A stretch of DNA of 64,000 nt from the IMG/VR virus record IMGVR_UViG_3300032070_000613, positions 1-64,000 of that record, one strand, 5' to 3'. Made by a program: the position numbers and the translations under genes. Origin of the DNA: a virus. Shown here one piece after another: positions 2,882-9,251 of the stretch. Every line of letters begins with the position of its first letter. Within the stretch, counting starts at the first letter, position 1. The notes under the pieces were generated by a model. The model was not told the origin of the DNA, ran no database searches, and was given only the letters and a program-made list of their open reading frames with translations.

Positions 2882-3436
2882 ATGATCGGTGAATCAAGCG
2901 GACTAGCACCTGATAGGGGTTTAAATATCCTCTATCGCGTGACAATGAATACGTTGATGAATCTGACTGAGACTGACCTGACACAAGCAAATTACAATAA
3001 TGGTCATGCTGAATCAGTGATAAATACACGTCTCAGCCCCAATACACCTAAAGGTCTCCTCGCGGGCTCGATCGTGTCAGCGAGTGCGACTGCAGGCGCA
3101 GTAGAAAAATGCGTCGGTGGTGGACGTCCTGGTAACTATCCTCTCGGTATCGTGATTAATAATGCCGTGGGATATCCTTTCGAATCCAGCTCCGGCGTAG
3201 CGAGTGGAAAGTGCCCATATCTGCATGGAGCAGGCACAGTGTTTTCGACGGATCTTTATGAGACATTTAACACCAGCAGTGTGGCTCTAGCGTATGCAGC
3301 TGGAGATTCTTTGTATTGTTCCCGTAACGGTCTTTTGGAAAATTCCGACGAAACTTCTAATCTCATAGTGGTCGGTATCGTTTTGATCGCTCCGTCGACG
3401 AGTGATCCGTTCATGGTCGTACAGTTGAGAATCTAA
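2882..3436 (+). CDS. Capsid decoration/cement protein, paralogue 1
   Basis: Small Gly-rich beta protein upstream of the MCP; near-duplicate of the next gene; GGAGG RBS. Confidence 0.65.
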   Translation: MIGESSGLAPDRGLNILYRVTMNTLMNLTETDLTQANYNNGHAESVINTRLSPNTPKGLLAGSIVSASATAGAVEKCVGGGRPGNYPLGIVINNAVGYPFESSSGVASGKCPYLHGAGTVFSTDLYETFNTSSVALAYAAGDSLYCSRNGLLENSDETSNLIVVGIVLIAPSTSDPFMVVQLRI

Positions 3437-3506: not shown

Positions 3507-4064
3507 ATGATTGGTGAAGCAAGCGGACTAGCCCCCGATAGAGGCCTAAACATCCTCTACAGAGTCTCGATGAACACGCTCATGAATCTGACCGAGACTG
3601 ATCTGACTCAGGCGAATTTCACAAATGGTAACGCCGAGACAATTACAAATACCCGTCTCAGCGCCAACACGCCTAAAGGTCTTCTCGCAGGTTCAGTCGT
3701 GAAGTGCAGCACTACTGCCGGTGCAGTTACAAAGGCAATCGGTGCCGCCAGTGAAGGTGCCCTTGGTATTGTGATTAACAATGCTGTGGGATATCCTTTT
3801 GAATCCAGTTCCGGTGTAGCAAGCGGAAAGTGCCCGTATCTGCATGGTTCTGGTACAGTGTTTTCGACGGATCTTTATGAGACGTTCCTTCAGGATGGCT
3901 CGACGGCTTTGGCATGGGCTGCTGGAGATGCTGTCTGTGCGTCACGTAATGGTCTTCTTACGAGATACGCCGTGAATCAGACCTCTGCCAATGAAGTCAT
4001 TGGTATCGTTTTGATCGCTCCGTCGACGAGTGATCCGTTCATGGTAGTGCAGATGAGAATCTAA
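3507..4064 (+). CDS. Capsid decoration/cement protein, paralogue 2
   Basis: Long identical blocks shared with 2882..3436 (e.g. LGIVINNAVGYPFESSSGVASGKCPYLHG). Confidence 0.65.
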   Translation: MIGEASGLAPDRGLNILYRVSMNTLMNLTETDLTQANFTNGNAETITNTRLSANTPKGLLAGSVVKCSTTAGAVTKAIGAASEGALGIVINNAVGYPFESSSGVASGKCPYLHGSGTVFSTDLYETFLQDGSTALAWAAGDAVCASRNGLLTRYAVNQTSANEVIGIVLIAPSTSDPFMVVQMRI

Positions 4065-4074
4065 TACGTTTGAT

Positions 4075-4107
4075 GATGTTCGGATTGGATACACGCCGCC
4101 GATCATC
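4075..4107 (+). ncRNA. Cis-regulatory RNA hairpin, copy 2
   Basis: Stem GAUGUUCGG/CCGAUCAUC, loop AUUGGAUACACGCCG. Confidence 0.7.
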
Positions 4108-4137
4108 ACAAATATAACCCATAATAGGAGGTTTTAA

Positions 4138-5019
4138 ATGGAAGGTAACATCAGCAATGAACTGAAACAGCAGATCATTGGTGAGTACATCAAGACTGCT
4201 GCGGGTCGTCAGAAGCTGGCGGCCTCAATGGTGCAGCCTCTACGTCTGCGTAGGGACTACACGTCAGTCGCACGTAAGGCGTTTCTCGTAGAACAGCTGC
4301 CCGATGGCGCACTGCCTATCTACGATAAAGACCCGAACGTGACGGCTTTCGTGGTCGGTGAAGAAGGCGAAAACATTCTCGCGATTACCAAACCGCGCCG
4401 TGTGATTTTCCCGTTGTTCGAAATTGCGTCGAACCCGGAAATTCCATTGACACAGGTCAAAGAGCGTCGGTTCGACCTCATTGAGAGGGCACAGGATCTG
4501 GCGAAAGCTCAGATACAGGCTGCGGAAGATGGGCGTGCTTTTGATGTGATGGACGCGGTGTCCCAGAATGGTTTCGATAATCTCGGTACAGCCTATACAA
4601 ATGCTCAGGTGAATGCGGTCGCTCCTCTGACACCCCCGAACCTGATCGATGCATTTGCTCGTATTGAGACGCACGACCTGAGGGCTGCTCGCGTGTTCAT
4701 GAATGCGCTTGATTTCGCTGACCTGAGGAAGTGGGGTCGTGATGTGTTCGATATCGAGGCACAGGCACAGATTCTGAAGACCGGTCTGATGGGTTCTGTG
4801 TGGGGTGCTCAGATCATCGTCTCTCGTAAAGTCACTCCGGGTTATGCGTATGTGTGTGCAGAGCCGGAGTTCTTCGGGAGGATCCCAGTCCGTACCGAGT
4901 TGACGGTGCTCAGTGCGGATGATCCAAAGGCGAGACGCATAGGGTTTAGCGTCTTCGAAAATTTGGGGATAGGTTGTCATAACCCACTTGCTATTACTCG
5001 TGTTAAGATTGCTCGCTAA
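4138..5019 (+). CDS. Major capsid protein (HK97 fold)
   Basis: Head-module position; HK97-like P-domain pattern (RVFMN...DLRKW...G.VWGAQIIVS); strong RBS; followed by a terminator. Confidence 0.85.
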   Translation: MEGNISNELKQQIIGEYIKTAAGRQKLAASMVQPLRLRRDYTSVARKAFLVEQLPDGALPIYDKDPNVTAFVVGEEGENILAITKPRRVIFPLFEIASNPEIPLTQVKERRFDLIERAQDLAKAQIQAAEDGRAFDVMDAVSQNGFDNLGTAYTNAQVNAVAPLTPPNLIDAFARIETHDLRAARVFMNALDFADLRKWGRDVFDIEAQAQILKTGLMGSVWGAQIIVSRKVTPGYAYVCAEPEFFGRIPVRTELTVLSADDPKARRIGFSVFENLGIGCHNPLAITRVKIAR

Positions 5020-5047
5020 TGTAGAGTGTTAATAGCAATTGTAAAGT

Positions 5048-5080
5048 AAAAAAGGTCCTAATAATTTTAGGGCCTTTTTT
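5048..5080 (+). terminator. Bidirectional intrinsic terminator after the MCP
   Basis: AAAAAAGGTCCTA...TAGGGCCTTTTTT. Confidence 0.8.
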
Positions 5081-5082
5081 AT

Positions 5083-5111
5083 TTGTTTTTCTGATCCAAA
5101 TGCAGTATATT
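5083..5111 (+). promoter_or_regulatory. sigma70-like promoter for omega-RNA/isrB
   Basis: TTGTTT-N17-TATATT. Confidence 0.55.
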
Positions 5112-5117
5112 TAGAAT

Positions 5118-5425
5118 ATTAAGTTTTCGAAGTGTTAACGACCCTTAAATAAGGGTCGTGGTGAGTAAAGGTATTATAAGCCAACTTTTGAAAACCACGA
5201 TTAAAATGGAGACTAGAGTGGTCAAGATCATCACCTGTAATTCCGAAAGGGATTTAAAAGATCTCGTAAGAGATGGTGATGGTCGTTTGAAGACAACTGA
5301 ACCTATTGCCCGTGGCAGGGTAAGAGATATAGAGGGTGCTTCCCTAGCTCTCTCTCCCTCTATAGGTCAGTCTCGAAGGGAGCAATTACCTGAATTATCT
5401 GCAAAGGTTATTCAGAGAAAGGTAC
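5118..5425 (+). ncRNA. IsrB omega-RNA (short 5' guide plus scaffold); boundaries approximate
   Basis: Scaffold starts GTTAACGACCC with perfect hairpin ACGACCCTT-aaat-AAGGGTCGT; contains GACTAG, GTGCTTCCCTAG...CCTCT...GTCAGTCTCGAAGGG blocks typical of IscB/IsrB omega-RNAs; directly upstream of a PLMP protein. Confidence 0.7.
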
Positions 5426-5430
5426 CAGTA

Positions 5431-7086
5431 ATGGTGCCAGTTTTATCTGTAGAGGGGAAACCGCTTATGCCGTGTCATCCGGCAAGGGCGCGTGAACTTA
5501 TTAAAAAGAAAGGAGCAAAAGAGAGATGGTATCGAGGTATTTATGCGATTCAGCTTATTCACAAGAATGGGAGTTTTTTACAGAATTCAGTATGTGGTAT
5601 TGATTCAGGATTTTATAGGGAAGCATTTACGATACAATCTGTTGATCATACTTATTTAAATGTACTTTCTGATGCTGTATGCTGGGTAAGTACAAGAGTT
5701 GAAAATAGACGAAACTCTCGTAAATCTCGTAGAGGAAGAAATCTTCCCTGTCGAAAAAGTAGGAGTAATCGGATGAATAAAAAGTCATGGTTAGCTCCTT
5801 CGATTAAAAGCAGGTGGGATATTAAATTAAGAATTATTGATTTTTTAAAGAAGTTATATCCTATAACAACTTATGTTATAGAGGATATAAATGCGAAAAA
5901 TAAAAAGAATTGTAGGAGATGGAATAGGGTTTTTTCTCCGTTACAGACAGGTAAAAATTGGTTTTATTATAGAGTAGAAAAAACAGGTGAATTGATACTA
6001 AAAAAAGGGTACGAAACATATATTCGTAGGGATTTATTTGGTTTTAAAAAGTTAAAGGATAAGTTTTCTGAATCTTTTTATAGTCATAATATTGATTCTT
6101 GGGTATTAGCAAGTTTTGTGACGGGGAAAAGAGATTTAGATATGACTAAGGTGTTTAGGATGGTTCCTCTTAAATTTCATAGAAGAGTACTTCATAATTT
6201 AAGCCCTGCAAAAGGCGGCTATAGGAAAAAATTTGGTGGAACTATGTCTTTAGGATTTAAGAGGGGGTCGGTTATATATCATAAGGAGTTAGGCTATGCT
6301 TATATAGGGGGTACGGCAGACGGGAGAGTTACGATACATAATATAGTGACTGGAAATATTCTTACATCACGGGCATTTCCTGCTGATTGTAAATTTATAT
6401 ACTTTAATAATTGGAGGACGGTATTTATTGATGAGTGTGGAAATTTTATTGGTAAGAGACATCGTGATATTTTTTTGAAAATAGAATACTGTACTCCTGA
6501 AATAATAGAAAAGAAAAGACAGACAAATTTAAAACGTTATGGTGTAGAAAAGTATACTAATCGGGAGCAAGCGAAAAAGACTTCTTTAGAGAGATATGGA
6601 GTAGAGTACACATGTGCTGTCCCGGAAATTATAGAGAAAAGGGTAGCTACTCTTATGGAAAGGTATGGTAGGGTTTTTAATGTAGATGAGCCGCATAATA
6701 AGTTTCATTTGGAAAATAAAGAAAAATTCATACAGGATTATGAATCCGGGTTGATTTTAGGAGATCTGGCTATTAAATATAAAATTAGCGAACCCACATT
6801 AAGTCGTATTATTAAAGATTTGGGATTGAGTCGTACTGTAGTAAAAGCAAAATCTTATGTAATAGATACTCCTTCAGAAGCCACATCAGATTATTTGAAA
6901 GCATGCCTTGAAAATAATAAAATCCTTTCTTTTTATGAGTATGGTAAGATAAAGGGGCAACAGTATTGTACTAAGATGAAAAGATGGTTTAATAAAGGTA
7001 GACTCTACAATAATTTACTTGAAGAGTTAAAGTCAGTAGCTCTATGCGCTGAAGAGCACGAGACTTTTTTAAACAAGTTAAGATAA
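5431..7086 (+). CDS. isrB: IsrB (PLMP/RRXRR, split RuvC, no HNH) fused to ~220 aa of (K/E)RYG repeats plus a putative HTH
   Basis: GKPLMPC, GIDSG (RuvC-I), Arg-rich helix, VIEDI (RuvC-II), HNIDS (RuvC-III); ATG 5431 is the likely start and the tracked 5158 extension reads through the RNA scaffold. Confidence 0.8.
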   Translation: MVPVLSVEGKPLMPCHPARARELIKKKGAKERWYRGIYAIQLIHKNGSFLQNSVCGIDSGFYREAFTIQSVDHTYLNVLSDAVCWVSTRVENRRNSRKSRRGRNLPCRKSRSNRMNKKSWLAPSIKSRWDIKLRIIDFLKKLYPITTYVIEDINAKNKKNCRRWNRVFSPLQTGKNWFYYRVEKTGELILKKGYETYIRRDLFGFKKLKDKFSESFYSHNIDSWVLASFVTGKRDLDMTKVFRMVPLKFHRRVLHNLSPAKGGYRKKFGGTMSLGFKRGSVIYHKELGYAYIGGTADGRVTIHNIVTGNILTSRAFPADCKFIYFNNWRTVFIDECGNFIGKRHRDIFLKIEYCTPEIIEKKRQTNLKRYGVEKYTNREQAKKTSLERYGVEYTCAVPEIIEKRVATLMERYGRVFNVDEPHNKFHLENKEKFIQDYESGLILGDLAIKYKISEPTLSRIIKDLGLSRTVVKAKSYVIDTPSEATSDYLKACLENNKILSFYEYGKIKGQQYCTKMKRWFNKGRLYNNLLEELKSVALCAEEHETFLNKLR

Positions 7087-7088
7087 CT

Positions 7089-8099
7089 ATGTCAGCTTTT
7101 GAAATAAAAACCACGGATAAAGACACTATACTCTATAACAAATATGGTGTTTTTTCTAAAAATGAGCTATTTCAGCAGTTGAAGGAAGGAATGCTTACAG
7201 AGAAAGAACTAGGGAGTATATATGATCTGAGCGCATTTCAAATGAGGTTGGTTTTAAAATTTTTGAGTATAGATTATAGATGCCCTTTGAATGAAACGAG
7301 AGTACACGATCCTATTGTTTCTTCATCGATGCATCAAGTCTTGGTAGGCACGTTACTTGGTGATAGCTATATGAGGCATCCTAAAGAGTTTGGGATAAGC
7401 CATAGTATCAATCAGATGGACTATTTGTATCACGTCGCTGAGCAGTTGGGGGATTTTGTTTCTACAGTAGAGTACAAAGAGTTAACATTTGGAGTAGCTT
7501 TAGATTTTTGGACGCACAGACATAGTGTTTTTGTATCGTATTTCGATAGATTTTATTCTAGGGGAAAAGAAAAAAAGTATATTACCGAGGGATCAGCATA
7601 CGATTTAGAACCTGAAGGCTTGGCTTATTGGTTTATGGATGATGGAAAGTTTGGTGATTATGGTATGAATTTATGCGTTGGAAATATTTCTGACGAGGAA
7701 GGTGCCCTATTAGTGAATTTATTATACAATAAATTTGGTATTGTATCCACTTTTCAGATACACGATGCTGCACGAGGTTATCACAATCTTTATATAAAAG
7801 CAGAGAGTAGGAGTCGTTTTATTGAAATTATTGAGCCCTATATCATTCCGTCTATGCGATATAAACTGACTGGAGAAAAATATCCTAAGTTATACCAAAA
7901 AAGTGATATAGCAGAAAGGCATATATCATATTGTAAAAAAGTAGGTAGGACTGTTAGATTTTCTGGGGACAGAACAGTGGAGAGTTCTATAAGATCTCAT
8001 TCAGCTATTTTCAGTAAAAAAGAGTTGTATGTGCAGCAGGTTAAGGAAAAAGTTAGGAATCGATGTTTAATATCTCATAAGGATATGAGAGTATGCTAG
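7089..8099 (+). CDS. Free-standing LAGLIDADG homing endonuclease
   Basis: VGTLLGDSY and LAYWFMDDG motifs, IIPSMRYK tail. Confidence 0.85.
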   Translation: MSAFEIKTTDKDTILYNKYGVFSKNELFQQLKEGMLTEKELGSIYDLSAFQMRLVLKFLSIDYRCPLNETRVHDPIVSSSMHQVLVGTLLGDSYMRHPKEFGISHSINQMDYLYHVAEQLGDFVSTVEYKELTFGVALDFWTHRHSVFVSYFDRFYSRGKEKKYITEGSAYDLEPEGLAYWFMDDGKFGDYGMNLCVGNISDEEGALLVNLLYNKFGIVSTFQIHDAARGYHNLYIKAESRSRFIEIIEPYIIPSMRYKLTGEKYPKLYQKSDIAERHISYCKKVGRTVRFSGDRTVESSIRSHSAIFSKKELYVQQVKEKVRNRCLISHKDMRVC

Positions 8100-8482
8100 A
8101 AATCCGCCCAATCAATCTTAGTGATATCCCTCCGGAGATTGTTTCTGAAGGTAAAAAGAAGGGGCTTATTTTCAGGGACTCGGGCAACGCCTTTTATTTT
8201 GGAGGGTTCATTGATGGAAATCTGGTGACCTTAAGCTGCTTAATTATATATAAGAACAAGAATGCGACGATTAAGGCCAATTTCACTTTGGAAGAACACA
8301 GAGAGAAGGGCTATTTCTCGGAACTGAATAAGTACGTTTTGGCCTATGCCCGGGACCACGGCGTGGAAGTTATTAACCTGAACTGTTTGGAAGATTCCGT
8401 GGACATACATGTTAAGCAGGGGGCCCGGGTATGGAAGACTACCAAGAACATATTCTGGCTGATGTACGATAAAGGATTCTGA
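8093..8482 (+). CDS. GNAT-family acetyltransferase
   Basis: 129 aa; TLEEHREKGYFSEL matches the acetyl-CoA motif A pattern. Confidence 0.7.
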   Translation: MLEIRPINLSDIPPEIVSEGKKKGLIFRDSGNAFYFGGFIDGNLVTLSCLIIYKNKNATIKANFTLEEHREKGYFSELNKYVLAYARDHGVEVINLNCLEDSVDIHVKQGARVWKTTKNIFWLMYDKGF

Positions 8483-8483
8483 T

Positions 8484-9251
8484 ATGGATAACAGAATCTT
8501 TTTCTCAAAGGATGTGAATGGGCTATTGGAGGCCCAGTTCGGTTCGGATTTTGGAAATGATACTATTGTGGCCTATCATGCGATGTATGAGAAGCCCGAG
8601 GTTAAGGCGGGGAAAGTGGTAGAGTGGGAAAAGTACAAGGGCATTTACAGTACTCTGGAGCCCTCCCGGATTGTTCTGATCGGGATCAACCGGATGATTG
8701 TCCCATCGAACCGGTGTGATTTTATACATGCACATCTTACTGTTTTGACCCCTCAGATTCCTAAAATTGTGATAGACACCGCTCCTTTCATAGGGGAACC
8801 ATGGCGGCTATATTTCCATTATCAGGTGGCTAATTGTTTCAGCAAGTTTGGAGCGAACTACAGTTATCCGATTGAGGGGGAATGGCGTCGATGGTTTGAG
8901 CGGGATATAGATGAGTGTCAGTTCAGCCCACAGAATTTGAAAGACCGCATAATCAATACTCATTCTGATTTGTCGTCGCTGGTGACCAGTTTTGAGTTGG
9001 TTACTCCGTCTCAGGAGGATTTGGAATGGTATGGGGAGGCACGGAAATTCGAGTTCGATAAGTTTAGGGCCCCGAAGATGTTGATATTTAATCTGCTGAA
9101 GGCATCCAACAAGCATTTTGGGTTGGATGTTTCCTATGACAGTTACTTGACGAATCAGGTTTACAGGGTTCCGGACATCGGGATTTACCGGTTCATAGTT
9201 GAGGAAAATCGAAGGCGGATGGGCATTTACAATCTCTTTACTGCAGTATGA
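8484..9251 (+). CDS. Hypothetical protein in the GNAT/IbrAB-like cassette
   Basis: 1-nt gap to the GNAT gene and ATGA overlap with the next gene. Confidence 0.6.
   Translation: MDNRIFFSKDVNGLLEAQFGSDFGNDTIVAYHAMYEKPEVKAGKVVEWEKYKGIYSTLEPSRIVLIGINRMIVPSNRCDFIHAHLTVLTPQIPKIVIDTAPFIGEPWRLYFHYQVANCFSKFGANYSYPIEGEWRRWFERDIDECQFSPQNLKDRIINTHSDLSSLVTSFELVTPSQEDLEWYGEARKFEFDKFRAPKMLIFNLLKASNKHFGLDVSYDSYLTNQVYRVPDIGIYRFIVEENRRRMGIYNLFTAV

Follow-up and report, generated by a model that had tools for sequence, protein, structure and literature searches.

Introduction

Does an IsrB gene that runs on in frame into a repeat and helix-turn-helix (HTH) module represent a genuine kind of system of the OMEGA type (obligate mobile element-guided activity), and what might such a system do? 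This question is raised by positions 5083 to 7086 of a 64,000-nucleotide stretch of viral DNA, which is positions 1 to 64,000 of IMG/VR record IMGVR_UViG_3300032070_000613 and is called here the window. An earlier reading of the letters alone (the sequence-only reading) had proposed at this place an IsrB fusion with its own promoter and a fixed guide, domesticated as an RNA-guided homing or competition factor or as a regulator. OMEGA nucleases, namely IscB, IsrB and TnpB, are helpers of transposons, and their guide is whatever DNA flanks the element. Exapted forms are known, on the one hand as CRISPR effectors and on the other hand as the nuclease-dead TldR repressors.

We found that the window carries an OMEGA build that is undescribed in the literature searched: IsrB is joined in frame to a predicted DNA-binding module, its omega RNA is encoded alongside and has a guide that stays fixed, and TnpA is absent. 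The carriers are a family of giant freshwater-sediment phages, some of them with genomes of ~470 kb. With roughly even confidence, we infer that the fusion functions as a free-standing, immobilised homing nickase targeted by RNA and protein together; no convincing target was found in the sequences searched.

A family of fusions at one locus

The protein encoded at positions 5431 to 7086 of the window has 551 amino acids (aa), and ATG 5431 is its likely start. A search of 5.8 billion proteins gave 12 full-length entries (P0001 to P0012; 602 to 685 aa). P0001 is the window's own protein, and the other 11 are 38 to 87% identical over the whole length. All carry both Pfam domains described below, except one that has RRXRR only, and the extension is conserved in the family to its last residue. 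Nine carrier loci were found (the loci read were L001, L002, L003/L004, L005, L006/L007, L009, L030 and the frameshifted L011/L012), and in all of them the fusion lies directly downstream of the 290-aa major capsid gene. It is followed in all readable loci by genes for proteins of 189 aa and 253 aa and then by a PAPS-reductase-like gene, while LAGLIDADG genes are placed variably, before or after the fusion. In the window, the unit is bounded by the following features.

5044 to 5084, + strand: intrinsic terminator of the major capsid gene (terminator scan).
7089 to 8099, + strand: LAGLIDADG homing-endonuclease gene, a neighbour outside the fusion (domain search).

The sequence-only reading had placed the unit just after the capsid-gene terminator, and this position was confirmed. 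The fusion was also correctly described as in frame, and with at least 11 distinct fusion proteins and nine carrier loci it is not unique to one assembly. The junction itself (~6417) is bridged by contigs of other sequencing runs, in X3 over positions 5778 to 6865 with 0 differences and in X6 over positions 6329 to 6741. Therefore, a chance deletion or misassembly is excluded.

The window record is a 141-kb fragment estimated to be 30% complete, and related records reach 467 to 470 kb. No match to the Y1 transposase (PF01797) was obtained in the 141-kb record, in agreement with the earlier remark that no tnpA is visible. The omega RNA and the fusion each occur there in a single copy, and they stand at the same genomic site in all carriers. 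With no TnpA, no visible ends, one copy and one site, the unit does not have the features of an IS200/IS605 mobile element. GenBank phage records gave no nucleotide match to the window locus, and tblastn gave unfused IsrB relatives only. Neither an IsrB fusion nor a phage IsrB whose guide is fixed turned up in the literature searched, which is in line with the suggestion of a new OMEGA architecture.

In one lineage (L012:5031-7039, also L011, L130 and L131; P0081), the fusion is broken in two by a frameshift close to where the IsrB core ends. This lineage has the only changes of the guide 12-mer and a less clear promoter, and it may be a decaying copy. The L011 contig ends at the frameshift point, and an assembly problem is possible.

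The IsrB core

The N-terminal part of the protein, aa 1 to ~335, is a complete IsrB.

5431 to 6435, + strand: IsrB core with PLMP, RuvC I-III (D58, E151, H219/D222), bridge helix and a fold for interaction with the target-adjacent motif (TAM) (Pfam, phmmer, alignment and model).

The Pfam family RRXRR (PF14239), which covers the part of IscB and IsrB with PLMP, RuvC-I and the bridge helix, matched aa 2 to 154 (3.6e-29), and the PLMP motif is at aa 11 to 14. The best phmmer match in the PDB was DtIsrB (8dmb, E=1.6e-32, aa 2 to 294). A full-length AlphaFold2 model built from 60 sequences had a mean predicted local distance difference test (pLDDT) score of 81. Foldseek with this model placed 8dmb_P at the top (E=7.9e-22, TMt 0.74, 345 columns for a 328-residue chain), with IscB structures next and plain RuvC far lower. 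Considering that the alignment spans 345 columns, the TAM-interaction part is included; in the model, the putative TAM-interaction domain consists of beta strands at aa 280 to 333 with pLDDT 85 to 93.

The RuvC residues D58, E151/D152 and H219/D222, numbered from ATG 5431, align with those of DtIsrB and are invariant across the alignment of the fusion family, down to ~45% identity. No HNH domain was matched by Pfam in the window protein. Judged by the conserved RuvC residues, the core is predicted to be catalytically intact. The proposal of an IsrB core with all three RuvC acidic residues was thus borne out by the Pfam match, the match to 8dmb and the family alignment.

The C-terminal extension

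Behind the core, aa ~355 to 551 consist of three DUF7487 repeats, then an HTH unit and then a helical end domain.

6436 to 6492, + strand: low-confidence linker, aa ~336 to 354 (pLDDT below 50 at aa 343 to 354).
6493 to 6708, + strand: three DUF7487 repeats, TNLKRYG, TSLERYG and TLMERYG (Pfam, module search).
6709 to 6819, + strand: three-helix HTH-like domain (model; Z 5 to 5.8, weak).
6871 to 7086, + strand: conserved helical end domain and stop codon (pLDDT ~95; shared with other proteins of the locus).

Pfam DUF7487 matched aa 379 to 444 (3.6e-10), and phrog_3339 of PHROGs, annotated as 'homing endonuclease', matched the repeats at 1.6e-06. An extension of ~220 aa with three T[NS]L[KE]RYG-like repeats and an HTH-like segment had been read from the sequence, and the repeats and the HTH-like unit are both present. 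The three helices at residues 101 to 156 of the extension model resemble small HTH DNA-binding domains at Z 5 to 5.8, which is a weak resemblance in a common arrangement of helices. When the extension fold was compared with the PDB by Foldseek, nothing was found at E<=0.001, and a wide VIA-align search gave generic HTH domains (Z 5 to 5.8) and saposin-like helix bundles (Z 5.5) only. We consider that the extension is a predicted DNA-binding module.

This module is shared with other classes of nuclease, as is usual for the modular DNA-binding domains of homing endonucleases. Searching with the extension only among 1.84 billion cluster representatives, we obtained 5,484 clusters at E<=0.001, mostly multi-repeat DUF7487 proteins. 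Vsr-like or other PD-(D/E)XK nuclease domains are carried by the sampled members P0126 and P0131, and L125 encodes a LAGLIDADG protein with DUF7487. In P0247, a GIY-YIG nuclease precedes the unit of repeat, HTH and end domain, and the extension aligned with it over its full length; its contig is 1.2 kb long and has no neighbouring genes. The end domain also closes zinc-finger and methylase/LAGLIDADG proteins at the same locus in other phages. No mention of DUF7487 was found in the literature searched.

Taken as a whole, the extension is closest to proteins of ~280 aa in which a C2H2/MucR-like zinc finger replaces IsrB (P0121, P0123, P0132 and others; also L077 and L121). The extension is homologous over its full length to this stand-alone gene of the same locus, which occupies the post-capsid locus in the IsrB-less phages L077, L105, L121, L132 and L073. 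There it sits after a large LAGLIDADG or LAGLIDADG-plus-methylase gene, and the gene list of P0240 is of the same locus type (a capsid-sized gene, two LAGLIDADG genes and then P0240). Identity is 65% between the L121 zinc-finger protein and the extension of L009, a close relative of L121, and 50% between the L077 zinc-finger protein and the window extension; the extensions of the window and L009 share only ~34% identity. No second DUF7487 gene was found in the carriers of the fusion. Because phages without IsrB have the zinc-finger form at this locus and carriers have the fusion alone, the two proteins behave like alternative alleles.

The omega RNA, its putative promoter and its guide

The region before the start codon has the features of an omega RNA gene.

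5083 to 5111, + strand: putative promoter TTGTTT, 17 nucleotides (nt), TATATT; the -10 box is conserved and the -35 box weak (alignment; absent from the list of the consensus scan).
5118 to 5131, + strand: omega RNA guide position, with a core AAGTTTTCGAA(G) at 5121 to 5132 that is invariant in eight intact lineages (alignment).
5132 to 5446, + strand: omega RNA scaffold, ending in a covarying hairpin (5421 to 5438) and a U-run (covariation, folding z, scan).

The ~300 nt upstream of the start codon align across the nine loci as invariant blocks between variable stems. RNAalifold gave 58 pairs, 29 of which show compensatory double changes. Column shuffles gave 14.9 +/- 2.4, with none of 500 as high, and partners slid by 1 to 3 columns gave 4 to 10. 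The single-sequence fold had z = -6.2. The last helix covaries and is followed by the U-run, which is terminator-like by the scan, and the isrB ATG lies in its loop. Accordingly, a structured RNA of ~300 nt stands upstream and overlaps the start of the reading frame, as in IsrB systems, and it has sequence blocks in common with canonical relatives. The Rfam search found no family at E<=1 in positions 4000 to 9000 and none at gathering score in the window. The HEARO model of Rfam misses the fusion omega RNA but finds two IscB RNAs elsewhere in the same phage genome, so the Rfam blank points to a different RNA type and not to a missing RNA.

One might instead take the 270 nt before ATG 5431 as an N-terminal extension of the protein, because an open reading frame from GTG 5158 runs to 7086 in the window. 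The frame is also open in several relatives, gene callers give 622 to 641 aa, and two length variants in run X6 keep the frame. We think that there is hardly any chance of this: L005 has several stops in the frame across the omega RNA region, so this stretch is not protein there, substitutions in the helices are compensatory, and these blocks are also conserved ahead of canonical IsrBs of 340 aa. The first 91 codons of the longer frame are the translation of the RNA gene.

At the tip of omega RNA helix 4 (5229 to 5279), X6 contigs have 12 or 15 unrelated bases instead, and the stretch is missing altogether in L005, L009 and L030. Thus, the tip is dispensable.

The guide was placed by comparison with ordinary IsrB elements that are present in more than one copy. 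L017 and L027, two copies on one phage contig, are alike from the GTCAATAACCCC-hairpin onwards and unrelated before it, and the L013b and L014a copies show the same pattern, with likeness starting at the scaffold. At the other end, L017 and L027 are alike up to a shared ATGA and then diverge, which fits the NTGA-type TAM reported for IsrB (PMC9581776). By homology, the scaffold of the window starts with the GTGTTAAC-hairpin at ~5132, and the guide is therefore the sequence just before it, predicted at ~5118 to 5131(2) with a length of 13 to 15 nt. The sequence-only reading had put the scaffold start at 5134; this has to be moved to ~5132, and the guide shifts with it.

The proposal that the guide is fixed held for a sequence of 11 to 12 nt. 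AAGTTTTCGAAG is invariant at the guide position in all eight intact lineages, whose proteins are down to ~45% identical and whose capsid genes are saturated at synonymous sites. The sole variant is AAATTTTCGAAA, with two changes, in L012, the one lineage with a broken reading frame. Ordinary IsrB has a guide from a variable flank and a 3' TAM; here, the guide is invariant and the 3' end is fused to another coding region. A pairing of the guide with the scaffold (UUUUCGA with UCGAAGG) was considered and rejected, as it shows no covariation and L006 breaks one pair without compensation.

The proposed promoter held in part. The -10 box (TATATT, TATAAT or TATTAT) is fixed 8 to 9 nt before AAG in the eight intact lineages. 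The -35 box TTGTTT of the window has only 3 of 6 consensus positions and was not listed by the scan; relatives carry TTGACT. The transcript is predicted to begin 1 to 4 nt before AAG. Another -10-like hexamer, weaker than the first, lies 6 nt further on, and a guide of reduced length could result from it. Among the public sequencing runs, the phage was found in sediment metagenomes (X1 to X8) and in no RNA run.

Selection, origin and distribution

Among the window, L001 and L002, the ratio of nonsynonymous to synonymous divergence (dN/dS) was 0.09 to 0.11 for the IsrB core and 0.06 to 0.10 for the extension, and both halves of the fusion are under purifying selection. Synonymous divergence (dS) was 0.64 to 0.84 in the core, higher in the extension and 0.92 in the capsid gene. 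These three phages seem to have inherited the fusion gene vertically.

All fusions group together by their IsrB cores in a single clade (SH-aLRT 98). A tree of the capsid proteins from 83 related phages requires at least six gains or losses to account for the nine carriers, and well-supported branches force four of these changes. Both main branches of this tree include carriers, mirroring two IsrB subclades. Close relatives without the fusion stand beside them: L084, L082 and L089 beside the window, and L121 beside L009 and L030. The simplest history would be that the fusion originated once and was then subject to repeated replacement or recombination. Patchy carriage among close relatives is the pattern of homing endonuclease genes, which form an island in the region behind the capsid gene. 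The earlier description of the element as domesticated needs qualifying in this respect, as its patchy distribution is like that of a selfish homing gene.

Proposed function and the search for a target

The fusion may be an immobilised OMEGA element that now acts as a free-standing homing endonuclease. The C-terminal module would anchor the enzyme at a DNA site. The fixed guide, whose shortness may keep it from holding a target alone, would pair with adjacent bases, and the single RuvC site would nick the displaced strand. During mixed infection, a nick in a related phage without the fusion would be repaired from the carrier genome, by which the gene and its surroundings would be copied. The probable origin is an IsrB element that fused to a resident zinc-finger/DUF7487 gene, with IsrB replacing the zinc finger. 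The more detailed proposal, which we hold only tentatively and with less confidence than the general one, is that a hybrid nickase uses the short hard-wired guide and the homing-endonuclease-type module to specify one site jointly, and that it drives gene conversion in the surroundings of the capsid gene when giant phages infect together.

Several observations weigh against a homing nickase. The guide has ~12 to 15 nt, fewer than the 20 nt with which DtIsrB was employed (PMC9581776). The dS of the fusion is similar to that of the capsid gene among the window, L001 and L002, which fits vertical descent with no recent spread there. The search of the guide against related phages that the sequence-only reading had called for yielded no cognate target. 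There is no second perfect match to the guide 12-mer in the 141-kb record, and no perfect match in 75 related loci lacking the fusion gene or in five related phage genome records of 210 to 470 kb, two of them complete or nearly so. In these five records, near-matches were no commoner than with a reversed control. A 12-mer cannot be searched meaningfully in large collections. The two near-matches that were followed are also weak.

4953 to 4964, - strand: near-cognate site AAATTTTCGAAG, 11/12 to the guide, over capsid codons F-E-N-L; a lead only (mismatch scan).

This capsid site, which lies 157 nt upstream of the unit and at first sight suggested classic intronless homing, is the only other site with at most one mismatch in the 141-kb record. 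In the 75 fusion-less loci, it comes within one mismatch of the guide in five (~7%) and never matches perfectly, about the rate expected from random choice at four or five free third-position codon sites. Guide matches across these loci cluster on two similar capsid peptide motifs only, F-D-N-L/I and F-E-N-L. The carriers' own capsid site has 1 to 5 mismatches (2 to 5 in carriers other than the window), and no NTG TAM was found beside it. Agreement is confined to constrained codon positions, with differences at third positions, and we rejected the site as evidence of a target and kept it as a lead. The guide also reads as x-V-F-E-G, the motif that the stand-alone zinc-finger gene has precisely where IsrB takes over in the fusion. 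In real zinc-finger alleles, the V-F-E-G site has 2 mismatches (P0124, in L152 and L153) or 4 to 5 (L121, L105 and L077). With its 2 to 5 mismatches, third-position differences and no NTG TAM, it was likewise rejected and kept as a lead. The palindrome TTCGAA encodes Phe-Glu on either strand, and half-matches to the guide therefore come cheaply.

Alternative explanations

It is unlikely, in our view, that the fusion is a domesticated tool acting on the phage's own DNA or expression. The ribonucleoprotein would then bind or nick a fixed site of the carrier, either the guide-encoding DNA at 5118 to 5131, which is followed by GTG, an NTG-type TAM, in the window's subgroup, or the capsid near-match. 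It would start recombination or replication, or repress transcription like the long-form trans-activating CRISPR RNA of Cas9 or like TldR. A fixed and short guide is consistent with this, as are the purifying selection on both halves and the similarity of synonymous divergence to the capsid gene among close carriers, and the only sites in the record with at most one mismatch are the unit itself and the capsid site. Moreover, the scaffold starts with GTG in the window, L001, L002 and L003 and with GTC in canonical relatives, and NTG was accepted by most tested IsrBs (PMC9581776). However, a self-TAM is not a feature of the family, as GCG follows the guide in the other subgroup, and other carriers have not retained the capsid near-match. 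The catalytic residues that are invariant here are lost in known RNA-guided repressors, and a gene with a housekeeping role should be present in the closest relatives as well.

More doubtful still is a weapon against a competitor or the host, in which the guide would be aimed permanently at a conserved sequence of unrelated co-infecting phages, other mobile elements or the host, and the carrier would profit from nicks made there. The invariance of the guide over deep divergence would imply a very stable target, and none was found within the phage family itself; however, this explanation has no candidate target, a single nick is a weak weapon, and module shuffling and the position in a homing-endonuclease island fit homing better. 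We give very little credence to a passenger, that is, an IsrB insertion that landed by chance in the 5' part of a zinc-finger/DUF7487 gene, only the C-terminal half being functional while IsrB and its RNA decay. The full-length homology of the extension to the stand-alone gene would be explained in this way, and so would the lineage with a broken reading frame (L012 and copies, P0081). Selection on the core, the RNA and the guide disfavours it, considering that dN/dS of the IsrB core is ~0.1, the catalytic residues are invariant down to ~45% identity, compensatory changes maintain the RNA helices and the guide is invariant in intact lineages.

Neighbouring elements

Two ordinary IscB genes (452 and 453 aa) lie outside the window at G000:C1:100070-101460 and 125590-127020 (L154 and L155), each preceded by a HEARO omega RNA above the Rfam gathering score (88.7 and 85.4 bits). 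The two copies are nearly identical from the element boundary, with two differences in the first 200 aligned columns, and unrelated upstream; they therefore look like recently mobile OMEGA elements with different guides. The same phage carries mobile OMEGA elements in addition to the fixed fusion.

In fusion-less phages (L071:5101-7836, L082:4960-7620, L097:2193-4910 and similar), the post-capsid gene encodes a protein of 800 to 911 aa. It combines LAGLIDADG, an N6/N4 DNA methylase and a 'homing endonuclease associated repeat' with the helical end domain that also closes the fusion, and in other phages it is split into genes of ~620 aa and ~280 aa. In L002, L005, L082, L088, L089, L093 and L141, an insert of 0.3 to 1.1 kb breaks up the major capsid gene at about codon 31 and looks like an intron or intein-type insertion; in L002 and L005 it holds a LAGLIDADG open reading frame. 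Before the capsid gene, the window has tandem paralogous genes at 2882 to 3436 and 3507 to 4064 (184 and 185 aa; 75% identical), of which relatives have one copy. The PAPS-reductase-like gene of L002 (8414-10783) carries an intein with a LAGLIDADG domain and encodes 789 aa, against 358 aa in the window.

Comparison with known systems

In summary, the fusion family represents a third outcome for OMEGA nucleases, in which IsrB stays intact, the transposon is lost, the guide is frozen and a module of homing endonucleases is gained. If a homing nickase is the right reading, the hybrid would achieve RNA-guided intronless homing without a transposase. It would link two kinds of selfish nuclease, protein-aimed and RNA-aimed, as an intermediate between them. 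It would also be a natural case of dual target recognition by RNA and protein, which engineers have built artificially for the specificity of small editors, in a compact nickase of ~550 aa whose short guide may be tolerated as the protein supplies anchoring. The post-capsid region of these ~470-kb phages is a hot spot of mutual replacement among cassettes of the LAGLIDADG, methylase, zinc-finger and IsrB types.

Free-standing phage homing endonucleases with modular DNA-binding domains include I-TevI, the Seg and Mob proteins of T4, and the nicking I-HmuI. The fusion shares with such enzymes a nuclease, a flexible linker and a shuffled DNA-binding module (PMC13565253), and also a gene that lies between conserved genes, in an island of such genes, and is patchy in close relatives. 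It differs from them in that its nuclease is a predicted RNA-guided RuvC enzyme with its own guide RNA.

With the IsrB of ISC1-type IS200/IS605 elements (DtIsrB, PDB 8DMB; PMC9581776), the fusion shares the domain set, the fold, the lack of HNH and the conserved catalytic residues, as well as a structured upstream omega RNA of ~300 nt that overlaps the start codon and has the guide at its 5' end. It differs by ~200 extra C-terminal residues that form the predicted DNA-binding module. Ordinary IsrB elements take their guide from the variable flank, whereas the guide of the fusion is fixed and of ~12 to 15 nt; the fusion also has no visible transposon ends, TnpA gene or TAM-bearing 3' boundary, and it keeps one conserved genomic site. 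The ordinary IscB of the same phage differs in that Rfam HEARO finds its RNA. Finally, TldR, as summarised in PMC13565253, is similarly an OMEGA protein gone from its transposon with a fixed guide encoded alongside. On the other hand, TldR is described there as derived from TnpB and unfused, with its catalytic residues lost and a guide that matches a promoter, whereas in the fusion the RuvC site is conserved and no promoter target was seen.

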